A DNA stretch of 64,000 bases from Escherichia coli (GTDB taxonomy: Bacteria > Pseudomonadota > Gammaproteobacteria > Enterobacterales > Enterobacteriaceae). Made by a program: the position numbers. Positions 57,001 through 63,000 of this stretch are shown piece by piece (the stretch's first letter is position 1; each line of letters begins with the position of its first letter). The stretch lies in NCBI RefSeq assembly GCF_003018115.1, contig NZ_CP027457.1, one strand, 5' to 3'.

Positions 57001-60000
57001 GTCGCCGTAAATGGTACTCCACCTGGTATTCGCTGGCATTTCTGAACATCACTGAATAATTCAAAAACTCCCCGCTCTCGCTATATGACAACGAGGTGAT
57101 CCGCAGCAGTGGCGTGTGTTCCGCTACCTTCATTTGCCGCGCCAGCAGTCTATCGGCGAGCACCGGCGTCAGGCTTTCATAATTACCGCCAATCAGAATC
57201 CCGCACTCTTGTTCAATATATTCAAACTTCGACCCTTCCAGATGTTGCAGCGAAAGGTTACGGAACAGTTTTACCGGCATATAGCTGTCTTCCAGCATCA
57301 GCGGTTTCCCTTCCACAAAACGAACGCGACGGGAGAAGTAGATCTGCTCGTTGATTTGAATCCGTAACTGGCTGGCAATGGCCGGAGGCGCAGGCATGAT
57401 TTCAAAAATCAGCACCTGGCTGGTGACCGTTTTTCCCTGACGTTTTAACACCTCCACCAGCCCGGTCAGACTGGCGGTTTGATGCAGTACATCTTTGCGC
57501 ACCAGGTAAGTGCCACTACCGTGGCGGCGGACCACCAGCCCCCACGCTACCAGCAGGTCAATGGCTTTACGGATGGTCATCCGCGATACCGCAAACTCTT
57601 CCGCCAGCTTTTTTTCACCGGGAAGAAGGCTGTTTAGCGTGAAATCTGCGGAATTAAGTCGAATTCTTAACCGCTCCGCAATGCTTTTGTAGATCATCTC
57701 TAGATCTCTTTTTTGCCTGCAAGCCCGGGTAATGCGCCCACAAGTTCTGCTTAATCGATTGAAAAAACATCTTTTTTTTAAAGATGTGTTCGATGCTGTG
57801 TACCAGTGCTCACAGAGGTCTACTTTTTCGCGAAAACGTAGATCTCTAACGCCCAACGAAAAGCATGAAAGCGATCACGAATCCCATTGGGTCGTCATGT
57901 TCTGCCGATCGCATCTTCCTATCCTCGCTCCAGGCCTGCCGCATAACCAATCAGGCTTCCTACTTACAGAATTGAGAAAAGAGGATGTGGAAATGCTCAG
58001 TCAAATTCAACGCTTTGGCGGCGCGATGTTCACGCCAGTGCTGCTGTTTCCCTTCGCCGGGATTGTGGTGGGTCTTGCTATCTTGCTGCAAAACCCGATG
58101 TTTGTCGGGGAATCACTGACCGATCCGAACAGTTTATTCGCGCAAATCGTACACATTATTGAAGAGGGCGGTTGGACGGTATTCCGTAATATGCCGCTGA
58201 TTTTTGCTGTCGGTTTACCCATTGGCCTTGCTAAGCAAGCGCAGGGGCGTGCTTGTCTGGCGGTGATGGTGAGTTTCCTGACCTGGAACTATTTCATCAA
58301 TGCGATGGGAATGACCTGGGGAAGCTACTTCGGTGTCGATTTCACTCAGGACGCGGTGGCAGGTAGCGGTCTGACAATGATGGCCGGGATTAAAACCCTC
58401 GATACCAGCATTATCGGCGCAATTATCATTTCCGGCATTGTGACGGCGCTGCATAACCGTCTGTTCGATAAAAAACTGCCGGTGTTTCTCGGCATTTTCC
58501 AGGGGACGTCTTATGTGGTGATTATCGCCTTCCTGGTGATGATCCCCTGTGCCTGGCTGACATTGCTCGGCTGGCCAAAAGTACAAATGGGGATTGAATC
58601 TCTGCAAGCGTTCCTGCGTTCGGCGGGTGCGCTTGGGGTGTGGGTTTACACCTTCCTCGAACGTATTCTGATCCCAACCGGTTTACATCACTTCATCTAC
58701 GGACCGTTTATCTTTGGTCCGGCAGCTGTTGAAGGCGGCATTCAGATGTACTGGGCGCAGCATCTGCAAGAGTTCAGTCTGAGCGCCGAGCCGCTGAAAT
58801 CGTTGTTCCCGGAAGGCGGTTTTGCCCTGCACGGTAACTCAAAAATCTTTGGTGCCGTGGGCATTTCTTTAGCGATGTACTTCACTGCCGCACCGGAAAA
58901 TCGGGTAAAAGTGGCGGGCTTGCTGATTCCCGCAACCTTAACCGCCATGCTGGTGGGAATTACCGAACCGCTGGAATTTACCTTCCTGTTCATTTCACCG
59001 TTGCTGTTTGCGGTACACGCTGTGCTTGCGGCCTCAATGTCGACCGTGATGTATCTCTTTGGTGTGGTGGGCAACATGGGCGGAGGTCTGATTGACCAGG
59101 TTTTACCGCAAAACTGGATCCCGATGTTCAGCAACCACGCGGATATGATGCTGACCCAAATCGCCATTGGGTTGTGCTTTACCCTGCTGTACTTCGTGGT
59201 TTTCCGCACCCTGATTCTGCAATTCAACATGTGCACGCCGGGACGTGAAGATGCGGAAGTGAAACTCTACTCAAAAGCCGAATACAAAGCCTCGCGAGGC
59301 CAAACCACCGCGGCAGAGCCAAAAAAAGAGCTGGATCAGGCTGCCGGTATCCTGCAAGCCCTGGGCGGGGTCGGCAATATCTCCAGCATCAACAATTGCG
59401 CGACGCGTCTACGTATTGCACTGCATGACATGTCACAAACGCTGGATGACGAAGTCTTTAAAAAGCTGGGAGCGCACGGCGTCTTCCGTAGTGGCGATGC
59501 CATTCAGGTGATCATTGGTCTGCATGTATCCCAGCTGCGTGAACAGCTCGATAGCTTAATTAATTCTCATCAATCAACAGAAAATGTTGCCATTACGGAG
59601 GCAGTATAATGACCAAATTCTCAGTGGTTGTCGCAGGCGGTGGAAGCACCTTTACGCCAGGCATCGTGTTGATGCTCCTGGCGAATCAGGACCGTTTCCC
59701 GCTTCGTGCACTGAAATTTTATGATAACGATGGTGCGCGGCAGGAAGTGATTGCCGAAGCCTGTAAAGTCATCCTTAAAGAAAAAGCGCCGGATATTGCG
59801 TTTAGTTACACCACCGATCCTGAAGTGGCATTCAGCGACGTTGATTTTGTCATGGCGCACATCCGCGTCGGCAAATACCCGATGCGCGAACTGGATGAAA
59901 AAATCCCGCTGCGCCACGGCGTTGTTGGTCAGGAAACTTGCGGACCCGGCGGAATAGCGTACGGCATGCGTTCCATTGGCGGCGTCCTGGAACTGGTGGA

Positions 60001-63000
60001 TTATATGGAAAAATATTCACCAAACGCCTGGATGCTCAACTACTCCAACCCGGCAGCCATTGTCGCAGAAGCCACGCGTCGTCTGCGTCCGAATGCGAAA
60101 ATCCTCAACATCTGTGACATGCCAATCGGTATTGAAAGCCGGATGGCGCAAATTGTTGGGCTGCAAGATCGCAAACAGATGCGCGTGCGCTACTACGGCC
60201 TGAACCACTTTGGCTGGTGGACATCAATTGAAGATTTGCAGGGCAACGACCTGATGCCCCAGCTGCGGCAATATGTCTCTAAGCACGGTTATGTTCCACC
60301 GCAGCAAGATACACATACTGAAGCGAGCTGGAACGACACCTATGCAAAAGCGCGGGATGTCCAGGCACTGGACCCGGATACATTGCCGAACACCTATCTG
60401 AAATATTATCACTTCCCGGATTATGTCGTTCAGCATTCCAACCCTGAACATACCCGCGCGAATGAGGTGATGGAACATCGCGAGAAACAGGTTTTCGATG
60501 CTTGCCGCGCCATTACGGCGGCAGGAAATTCAGCGGCGGGCAAGCTGGAGATTGACGAACATGCGTCATACATCGTCGATCTGGCGACGGCAATTGCCTT
60601 CAACACTCAGGAGCGGATGTTGCTGATTGTGCCTAACAACGGGGCAATCCATAACTTTGATGATGAAGCGATGGTCGAGATCCCGTGTCTGGTCGGGCAC
60701 AACGGACCAGAACCACTGGTGGTCGGCGATATCCCGCAGTTTCAGAAAGGGTTAATGAGTCAGCAAGTGGCGGTGGAAAAACTGGTCGTGGACGCCTGGG
60801 AACAGCGTTCATATCAGCACCTGTGGCAGGCGATTACGTTGTCGAAAACGGTACCGAGCGCCTCGGTCGCCAAAGCTATTCTGGATGAGTTGCTGGAGGC
60901 CAACAAAGCGTACTGGCCAGAGTTACGTTAATTGTGTGGACTGGCATCCGTTGGGTGCTGGTCCGTATTCTTTAGCACGGCTGACGGCGCATAACCAAAT
61001 TTATGTTTAAAGGCTTTGCTGAAATGAAAGGAGTCGAAGAAGTTGAGCGTATCAGCGACTTCGCCAACCGAGTTTCCTTGTTGCTTTAATAGCGATAGCG
61101 CCAGATCCAGACGCGCATCGAGGTAATATTCTTTCGGCGTCTTGCCGGTATAGCGTAAAAACAGACGACGCAACCAGGCTTCGCTACAGGGGATCGTGGC
61201 AGCCATATCAGCTACGCTCCAGCGTTGTTGCAGACTGGCATGTAAAGTGGCAATTAATTTTTCAATTTGCCGCCGTTGTGGATCTTTTTTACCATCTGCG
61301 TACATAAGACAAATCCACTGATAAATAATTTTCGTCAGAAAAGCGACTGCCAGATTATTTTTTATTGCTTCTGGTGAAGTTATTAACTCAGCAACTTCGG
61401 TGAGTTCCTGATTATAAATTTCGCCATTATAAATAACGCTTTGCTGACCAACGGGAATATCCATCATACTGGTGGGGGTAAATTCCATCCAGTACTGTTC
61501 CCAGACTAAACCTTCACAGTGATAAGAGTGAATATCCATTGGCTTTAAGAATATAATACAGTTGCCATGCAGTGTTATTTGTTCGCCATTCTTTAAAAGA
61601 ATTTTCCCACATCCTTGTACGGTATACACCGCAACCCATGAGTTGGCGATAAGCGGTTTCTTCTTGTCCCGCGGCCAGATCACCCGGTAATGCTCGTCGG
61701 CGTAGGTATGCCAGAGCGAGATCAGAGAAATTCCGCTGGAGATCACATTTTCGTTAATCAATAAGGGAATATTGTATGGAGTTTCGTTTTTTACATCTGA
61801 AGTTTGCAATTTTCCATTCATTTTAATATCCCTCCGGCGAATTATGCTCACAACCTGAACTTAACAGAAAACAATCCGTTCAGGGATACGACGTTTGTAT
61901 TTTAAGAATCTGACTGCCTGACCCGACGCATTTTACCTCTCCCTATATTCATGCGTCCGGGACATAAACATAAATAAGGGCTATGAGATGAATTCGTTAC
62001 AAATCTTGAGTTTTGTCGGTTTTACGCTGCTGGTGGCGATCATCACCTGGTGGAAGGTTCGCAAAACAGATACCGGATCGCAACAAGGCTATTTTCTTGC
62101 CGGACGTTCACTAAAAGCGCCGGTTATTGCCGCTTCGTTAATGTTAACGAATCTTTCCACGGAACAACTGGTTGGTCTTTCCGGGCAGGCCTACAAAAGC
62201 GGCATGTCGGTGATGGGCTGGGAAGTCACTTCAGCGGTGACGCTGATCTTCCTCGCGCTAATCTTTTTACCGCGCTATCTGAAGCGCGGCATTGCCACCA
62301 TCCCCGATTTTCTGGAGGAACGTTATGATAAAACGACGCGTATTATCATCGACTTCTGCTTCCTCATTGCCACCGGCGTCTGCTTTCTGCCGATTGTTCT
62401 CTACTCCGGCGCGTTGGCGCTCAACAGCCTGTTTCACGTCGGGGAATCGCTACAGATTTCTCACGGTGCGGCTATCTGGCTATTGGTAATTTTGCTTGGT
62501 CTGGCGGGAATTTTGTATGCGGTGATCGGCGGACTGCGCGCAATGGCAGTGGCGGACTCCATCAACGGTATTGGGCTGGTTATCGGCGGGTTGATGGTGC
62601 CGGTATTTGGCCTGATCGCGATGGGCAAGGGCAGCTTTATGCAGGGCATTGAGCAAATTACCACCGTTCACGCCGAGAAATTAAACTCAGTCGGTGGCCC
62701 GACCGATCCCTTGCCGATTGGCGCGGCATTTACCGGTTTAATTCTGGTGAACACCTTTTACTGGTGTACAAATCAGGGCATCGTGCAACGCACGCTGGCG
62801 TCAAAAAGCCTGGCGGAAGGGCAAAAGGGGGCGCTGTTAACGGCGGTGCTGAAAATGCTCGACCCGCTGGTACTGGTGCTGCCAGGGTTGATTGCGTTTC
62901 ATTTGTATCAGGATTTACCGAAAGCCGACATGGCCTACCCGACGCTGGTCAATAACGTTCTGCCAGTGCCACTGGTGGGTTTCTTCGGCGCGGTGTTATT

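Follow-up and report, generated by a model that had tools for sequence, protein, structure and literature searches.

Intact glvC and glvG genes in an Escherichia coli genome: an ancestral allele of a probable alpha-glucoside phosphotransferase operon

Introduction

Is the glv locus of Escherichia coli, which in K-12 is broken into pieces, a complete sugar utilization operon elsewhere in the species and, if so, for which class of sugars? The question is raised by a 64,000-nucleotide stretch of E. coli DNA (NCBI RefSeq assembly GCF_003018115.1, contig NZ_CP027457.1), here called the window, in which the genes yidP, glvC, and glvG lie between yidE and yidL. A sequence-only reading of this DNA had described glvC and glvG as uninterrupted and had proposed that, with the neighboring regulator gene yidP, they make up a functional phosphotransferase system (PTS) for alpha-glucosides.

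The analysis indicates, with good but not full confidence, that the alpha-glucoside PTS operon of enterobacteria is present in the window as an intact, ancestral allele, orthologous to aglA-aglB of Klebsiella pneumoniae. The integrity of the genes, their family, orthology, and synteny, the purifying selection acting on them, and the exact lesions of the K-12 copy are all observed or computed directly, and are taken up first.

Integrity of glvC and glvG

The chromosomal order in the window is ibpA-ibpB-yidE-yidP-glvC-glvG-yidL-yidK. The three genes of interest are:

56981 to 57697, minus strand: yidP, 238 residues, a GntR winged helix-turn-helix domain plus a UTRA effector domain, divergent from glvC
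57993 to 59609, plus strand: glvC, 538 residues, an intact permease (EIICB) of the alpha-glucoside PTS type, without a IIA domain
59609 to 60931, plus strand: glvG, 440 residues, an intact 6-phospho-alpha-glucosidase of glycoside hydrolase family 4 (GH4), NAD+/Mn2+ type

The span of 57993-60931 and the lengths of 538 and 440 residues given earlier are exact according to the list of open reading frames (ORFs) and the supported ATG at 57993. This start is preceded by a Shine-Dalgarno sequence, AAGAGGA, at 57979-57985, and the equivalent start is used by RefSeq in strain F9792 and in K-12, as well as by the orthologs. A longer ORF of 625 residues (57732..59609) was considered as the real glvC and ruled out, because it lacks a ribosome-binding site and because the orthologs and RefSeq start at the equivalent of 57993. 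The glvC and glvG genes overlap by a single base (TAATG), and GGAGG is present upstream of glvG. By translation and by comparison with K-12 and with other alleles, there are no internal stops or frameshifts in glvC and none in glvG; a frameshift, named in the sequence-only reading as one of the results that would overturn it, was looked for by re-translation and is present in neither gene.

The glvC DNA of the window is identical to that of F9792 (WP_001614156.1). Over positions 57700-64000, the window and F9792 differ at one base, 60497, which gives GlvG an aspartate at residue 297 in the window versus an asparagine in F9792. F9792 is the closest complete genome; its yidE is annotated as frameshifted through a 1-nt indel near window position ~55730, and the yidE of the window is intact. 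Thus, the window comes from a close but non-identical relative of F9792.

At its 3' end, glvG overlaps the convergent AraC-family gene yidL by 4 nt (60928-60931), which leaves no space for an intrinsic terminator. The same 3' overlap is present in Citrobacter rodentium (6320-6323 of the compared segment).

Lesions of the K-12 locus

The sequence-only reading described the K-12 locus as cryptic or fragmented. Alignment of the window with K-12 MG1655 (glv locus b3683-b3681) bears this out and locates the damage: an amber codon at glvC position 369 and a 508-bp deletion in glvG. The two strains share the locus between yidP and yidL with 99% DNA identity. The sites at issue, in window coordinates, are:

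58704 to 58706, plus strand: glvC codon 238 (CCG, Pro), which is CAG (Gln) in K-12
59097 to 59099, plus strand: glvC codon 369 (CAG, Gln), the K-12 amber site, TAG (59097 C>T)
60202 to 60709, plus strand: the glvG segment deleted in K-12, 508 bp, between 8-bp direct repeats

The glvC DNA of K-12 has the same length as that of the window. Its amber codon splits the gene into a "glvC" of 368 residues and a "glvB" of 161 residues, which restarts at M378, and it also has the substitutions P238Q and T529A. P238 lies within the motif HHFIYGPFIFGP and does not vary among the four aligned genera, and thus P238Q is a second probable lesion in K-12 glvC. In glvG, the 508-bp segment is flanked by the direct repeats GAACCACT at 60202-60209 and 60710-60717, and its deletion shifts the frame so that the K-12 GlvG ends at 212 residues.

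Distribution and selection in E. coli

The frequency of each state of the locus was counted among 5,426 complete E. coli genomes. Alleles were counted with 55-mer probes in which every 28-mer seed spans the single-nucleotide difference. The deletion junction was counted by the identity bands of a junction probe; query coverage could not separate deleted from intact copies.

The locus is present in 4,283 genomes and absent in ~21%, and in the genomes that lack it, yidP-glvC-glvG are cleanly missing between yidE and yidL. In Touchon et al. (2009), glvC is one of the genes whose absence is specific to phylogroup B2 (PMC2617782 Table 5). The glvG segment missing from K-12 is present in 1,652 genomes (30%), whose carriers include O157:H7, O55:H7, O145, the enterotoxigenic E. 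coli (ETEC) strain H10407, sequence type 69 (ST69), and derivatives of E. coli B. The exact 508-bp deletion junction is found in ~2,642 genomes (~48%), a count consistent with the difference between locus matches and segment matches (4,267 - 1,649). In glvC, the Gln369 (CAG) allele is present in 3,925 genomes and the amber (TAG) allele in 348, for which all of the listed examples are K-12 or laboratory-derived strains. The P238Q allele is far more common than the amber (1,792 genomes, including K-12 and ECC-1470), and this substitution may represent an older loss-of-function change, associated with the glvG deletion.

For joint intactness of the two genes, 5 genomes that have the full-length glvG segment were inspected. 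In 4 of these, both genes are annotated as intact; the exception, A34, has a frameshift in glvG. The RefSeq annotations of O157:H7, H10407, E. coli B, and ST69 show glvC and glvG uninterrupted, and the identical or nearly identical genes are named there "PTS sugar transporter subunit IIB" and "6-phospho-alpha-glucosidase". The state of the window is therefore the ancestral one, common to about three in ten genomes and already annotated publicly; the earlier description of glvC and glvG as intact is correct, but the observation is an ordinary one and already known.

These population data also settle whether the intact genes might arise from an error of sequencing or assembly, or from a chimera. 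Nothing was found to support such an artefact. A single base separates the region from the independent complete genome of F9792, 1,652 complete genomes contain the part of glvG that K-12 has lost, and RefSeq reports the intact pair in the four backgrounds just named. The artefact is refuted, and the probability left to it is negligible.

In H10407 (3719-5499 of the compared segment) and A34 (3720-5501 of its segment), the genes yidL-yidK-yidJ downstream of glvG have been replaced by an IS200/IS605 tnpA pseudogene and an intact gene for TnpB, an RNA-guided endonuclease, with a 75-bp remnant of yidL.

Selection was estimated from the alleles of O157:H7, H10407, E. coli B, ST69, and the window, among which synonymous polymorphism (pS) ranges from 1.3 to 7.8%. 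The ratio of nonsynonymous to synonymous polymorphism (pN/pS) is 0.00-0.13 for glvC and 0.00-0.15 for glvG, and the GlvC protein is identical in O157:H7, H10407, and ST69 despite 20-27 synonymous differences. Both genes are under strong purifying selection across phylogroups.

Outside of E. coli, the module of a divergent GntR/UTRA regulator gene, an EIICB gene, and a GH4 gene occupies the same chromosomal site in Enterobacter hormaechei and C. rodentium. The same three genes are found together in Erwinia tasmaniensis, in an unrelated neighborhood.

GlvC, the permease

The sequence-only reading had identified GlvC as an EIICB with a CATRLR motif in its IIB domain, and the domain search agrees: the Pfam matches are PTS_EIIC (10-346) followed by PTS_EIIB (453-482), with CATRLR at 469-474. 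No EIIA domain was found in GlvC with Pfam, and no IIA gene is present at the locus in the ORF list or the RefSeq annotation. In PTS permeases, the CATRLR motif contains the phosphorylatable cysteine, and the GITE motif of the IIC domain takes part in sugar binding. Both are invariant across the four genera aligned, the former as NNCATRLR (467-474) with C469, the latter as GITEP at 322-326. GlvC is 72-80% identical to the EIICB proteins of Enterobacter, Citrobacter, and Erwinia, and is homologous to E. coli PtsG in the EIICB structures 8QSR/9HNP (E ~1e-57).

Among the NCBIfam models, GlvC scores 959.2 bits with TIGR02005, the alpha-glucoside-specific PTS transporter subunit IIBC (cut-off 607.3). 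It falls below the cut-offs of the PtsG model (316 vs 592 bits), the MalX model (277 vs 632 bits), and the N-acetylglucosamine (NagE) model. The C-terminal 161 residues also match NF007255, an equivalog built on the K-12 "GlvB", which is why RefSeq names the whole of GlvC as a subunit IIB. By its sequence, GlvC is classed as an alpha-glucoside-specific EIICB of the AglA/GlvC/MalP type.

The same scores bear on the legacy annotation of K-12 glvCBG, by which the locus would encode a PTS for beta-glucosides such as arbutin, together with a 6-phospho-beta-glucosidase. The older naming persists, as in "glvC, arbutin specific PTS permease" (PMC2617782 Table 5), but GlvC passes the alpha model and lies far below the cut-offs of the beta-glucoside model (45 vs 615 bits) and the arbutin/cellobiose/salicin model (43 vs 722 bits).

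GlvG, the hydrolase

GlvG contains both GH4 domains, PF02056 (6-184) and PF11975 (195-415), and it matches the solved 6-phospho-alpha-glucosidase 6DUX/6DVV, which we take to be AglB of K. pneumoniae (917 bits and, as estimated from the alignment, ~89% identity end to end). The earlier identification of a 440-residue GH4 6-phospho-alpha-glucosidase is thus upheld. GlvG also matches the maltose-6'-phosphate glucosidase 1U8X (747 bits, E = 7e-224). NCBIfam has no equivalog model for GH4 6-phospho-alpha-glucosidases, and the best GlvG match there is below its cut-off. As for the beta-glucoside annotation, the GH4 6-phospho-beta-glucosidase 1S6Y scores 212 bits (such beta enzymes score ~210) against the 917 of the alpha enzyme. 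At the level of sequence, the beta-glucoside assignment is effectively refuted, and we consider it highly improbable. The proposal of an alpha-glucoside PTS agrees with both proteins, through the TIGR02005 match of GlvC and the ~89% identity of GlvG to a 6-phospho-alpha-glucosidase. The "arbutin-like" substrates that the sequence-only reading had also suggested are not consistent with this class, since arbutin is a beta-glucoside, the enzyme is the ortholog of a 6-phospho-alpha-glucosidase, and the beta models failed.

Multiple elements of the active site are preserved. The dinucleotide-binding GGGS, including G10 and G12, lies at 10-13, and the GH4 signature, as in the PROSITE pattern, spans 138-169 and ends in the metal-ligand cysteine. 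In an alignment of 15 sequences (the window GlvG and 14 diverse GH4 representatives), GlvG keeps every invariant column; C169, D170, N199, H200, Y263, Y266, and Y267 stand in columns that are invariant or nearly so. GGGS, C169, D170, H200, and Y263 are identical in 6DUX and 1U8X. We take C169 and H200 to be Mn2+ ligands and D170 and Y263 to be catalytic, corresponding to C171, H202, D172, and Y265 of GlvA. By family membership and orthology, GlvG is classed as a GH4 6-phospho-alpha-glucosidase of the AglB/GlvA/MalH type.

One residue departs from the family:

60410 to 60412, plus strand: glvG codon 268 (CAC, His), the lineage-specific L268H beside the Y263/Y266/Y267 block

At this position, leucine is found in 6DUX, 1U8X, and the remaining E. 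coli alleles, and one of L, Y, F, or W in each of the 14 GH4 representatives, so that the window GlvG does not match the hydrophobic or aromatic pattern of the column (NTYLxYY-L/Y/F/W). The change is non-conservative and rare, being present in 5 of the 5,426 genomes: F9792, F8111-1SC3, two O169:H41 strains, and LR882990. It places the window in the F9792/O169:H41 lineage. Residue 268 is not a recognised defining residue, and L268H is thus a caveat on activity, not on membership in GH4.

YidP and the control region

The sequence-only reading had noted an adjacent regulator of the GntR type, and YidP indeed contains a GntR domain (PF00392, 4-65) and a UTRA domain (PF07702, 88-225), as expected for the GntR/HutC type, and is divergent from glvC. 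The gene is annotated as yidP in F9792 and K-12. Orthologs of YidP that are 57-77% identical lie divergently beside the EIICB-GH4 pair in Enterobacter, C. rodentium, and Erwinia. That yidP travels with this pair across genera, including the different context of Erwinia, ties YidP to the operon, and from this synteny it is presumed that YidP is probably the repressor of glvCG. Between yidE and the EIICB gene, C. rodentium carries a tandem pair of GntR/UTRA genes (1641-3123 of the compared segment); YidP is 75% identical to the product of the gene closer to yidE and only 57% identical to that of the gene next to the EIICB gene.

The region between yidP and glvC contains the following elements:

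57698 to 57992, no strand assigned: 295-bp control region between yidP and glvC, with almost no variation among 8 E. coli alleles
57814 to 57847, no strand assigned: candidate YidP operator, a 34-bp near-perfect palindrome consisting of AGAGGTCTACTTTTTCG followed by CGAAAACGTAGATCTCT
57864 to 57879, plus strand: CRP-like site, CATGAAAGCGATCACG, with CATGA-N6-TCAC invariant in the four genera aligned
57920 to 57925, plus strand: -10-like hexamer TATCCT in a conserved block, TATGCT in Enterobacter and Erwinia

The palindrome was found by a repeat search and has 17-nt arms that are 88% complementary, with 0 spacer. Its right arm, TAGATCTCT, is repeated at 57701-57709, beside the yidP start, and half-sites of the GTAGAC type are partly kept in Enterobacter. 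Both 57814-57847 and 57701-57709 are proposed as candidate YidP operators.

A consensus scan of the 295-bp region detects no consensus σ70 promoter, and a terminator scan gives only chance-level matches. The -10-like TATCCT is missed by the consensus scan, as expected if the promoter depends on an activator. The center of the CRP-like site is ~60.5 bp upstream of the start implied by this hexamer, which is class I spacing, and the conservation of the site suggests catabolite control. Another CRP candidate, at 57799-57814 (strict consensus, 2 mismatches), occurs at chance frequency and was set aside for the site at 57864-57879, which is conserved across genera.

In E. coli B (NZ_CP115178.1), glvC and glvG are intact and yidP is annotated as frameshifted (1-488 of the compared segment). 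If YidP is a repressor, strains of the B/BL21 type might express the operon constitutively.

Proposed function

Taken with what is known of its relatives, the sequence of the locus suggests how it would work. GlvC would take up alpha-linked glucosides as their 6-phosphates; by analogy with AglA, these might include methyl-alpha-glucoside, isomaltose, maltitol, and five isomers of sucrose (palatinose, turanose, maltulose, leucrose, and trehalulose). Cys469 of the IIB domain would phosphorylate O-6 of the glucosyl moiety. Because neither GlvC nor the locus encodes a IIA, the phosphoryl donor would be the unlinked IIA-Glc (Crr~P). GlvG, by redox-elimination with NAD+ and Mn2+, would then convert the 6-phospho-alpha-glucoside to glucose-6-phosphate and the aglycone. 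YidP would probably keep the operon repressed, with the binding of an effector to its UTRA domain relieving the repression, and the CRP-like site would place the operon under catabolite control. The substrate range, the dependence on Crr, the regulation, and expression and activity in this strain are thus predictions from relatives and sequence, and it is in this qualified sense that we infer the alpha-glucoside PTS of the window to be functional.

Several points weigh against an operon that is intact and working. The control region has no consensus σ70 promoter. L268H is a rare change in a conserved hydrophobic or aromatic column next to Y263, Y266, and Y267. The locus is decaying within the species, through the 508-bp deletion (~48%), outright absence (~21%), and sporadic frameshifts such as that of A34, which argues for weak or niche-specific selection. 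In the tables commonly used for identification, E. coli is reportedly negative for alpha-methyl-D-glucoside and palatinose, a result that would be hard to square with an active system expressed in 30% of strains. In the literature searched, no experiment (expression or growth) on native intact E. coli glvCG was found, nor any E. coli phenotype on palatinose, turanose, or alpha-methyl-glucoside linked to glv genotype. The strain DSM 30083T is reported as negative. A palatinose figure in PMC3877295 was set aside, as other values of the same table are unlike E. coli.

Together, these points suggest an alternative: the genes are intact but phenotypically silent, either unexpressed (through tight repression by YidP or a weak, activator-dependent promoter) or with a GlvG crippled by L268H, so that the strain would behave like K-12 on alpha-glucosides. 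Repeated independent losses within the species, which suggest little selective cost, and the negative scores reported for E. coli also favor silence. Against it are the strong purifying selection on glvC and glvG across phylogroups and the fact that the regulator and the control elements (CRP-like site, -10-like hexamer, Shine-Dalgarno sequences) are kept across genera. Moreover, GlvG keeps all of the family-invariant residues, and since aromatics are tolerated at column 268, a histidine may be tolerated as well. On balance, silence appears unlikely, and an intact alpha-glucoside PTS operon orthologous to aglA-aglB remains the preferred explanation.

A broader idea, which we put forward only tentatively and consider doubtful, is that intact glvCG is an active nutritional trait that differentiates lineages in ~30% of E. 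coli, among them O157:H7, ETEC, and E. coli B. If so, these strains would be able to exploit alpha-glucosides of the diet, including isomaltulose (palatinose), isomaltose, and maltitol, and niche-dependent selection, instead of neutral decay, would lie behind the pattern of intact loci, 508-bp deletions with or without P238Q, amber alleles, and absence from B2. A side prediction would be that BL21-like strains, with their frameshifted yidP, are constitutive for the operon.

Whatever the phenotype, K-12 is a poor reference for the glv locus, and the legacy names "glvB" and "arbutin-specific" reflect a K-12 lesion and the wrong substrate class. In metabolic models of individual strains, possible use of alpha-glucosides (such as palatinose, isomaltose, and maltitol) is predicted by genotype for the ~30% of E. 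coli that keep full-length glvG. Current views of PTS systems and GH4 enzymes are left unchanged.

Other features of the window

The window lacks the D-galactonate operon, dgoRKADT. Its site lies between yidX (~50253-50909) and cbrA (51155-52240), where K-12 has 4.76 kb; the junction is at 51038-51053, where two K-12 alignments overlap by 16 bp, and ~100 bp of the dgoT 3' end remain. Four RNA features match Rfam at the gathering level:

5295 to 5452, minus strand: small RNA STnc410
43128 to 43208, minus strand: AsdA, antisense RNA of dnaA
48685 to 48727, minus strand: small RNA ES036 (CssrF)
54108 to 54180, plus strand: ROSE_2 RNA thermometer before ibpA

Comparison with known systems

The closest relative is aglA-aglB of K. 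pneumoniae, which shares with the window the gene order (EIICB, then GH4), the lack of a IIA domain, and a hydrolase, presumably that of the solved 6DUX/6DVV, which is ~89% identical to GlvG over its full length. The two differ in that activity has been shown for the Klebsiella genes, while the E. coli operon is known here from its sequence, and in that AglB (which we take 6DUX to be) has leucine where the window GlvG has H268. In PMC5309279, which cites Thompson (2001) and Pikis (2006) as sources on aglA-aglB, K. pneumoniae aglA and aglB are reported to enable E. coli K-12 to use the sucrose isomers, isomaltose, and methyl-alpha-glucoside for growth; AglA is reported to work with the host IIA-Glc (crr), and the corresponding K-12 genes are treated as cryptic or truncated. 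The same paper describes growth of E. coli K-12 carrying B. subtilis glvA and glvC on isomaltose, panose, and other alpha-glucosides, again dependent on crr.

The glvA (malA)-glvR-glvC (malP) operon of B. subtilis is likewise homologous to the E. coli genes. Its EIICB also relies on a separate IIA-Glc, and its GH4 enzyme is ~75% identical to GlvG, as estimated from the alignment with 1U8X, which is presumably B. subtilis GlvA. It differs in that the hydrolase gene comes first and the physiological substrate is maltose. Its regulator, GlvR, belongs to the RpiR family and not to GntR/HutC.

E. coli K-12 glvC/glvB/glvG is set apart by Q369amber, P238Q, and the out-of-frame 508-bp deletion, all of which the window lacks. 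Finally, PtsG and MalX of E. coli belong, like GlvC, to the PTS Glc superfamily, with the C-then-B domain order and the CATRLR and GITE motifs; unlike GlvC, they are not paired with a GH4 hydrolase.

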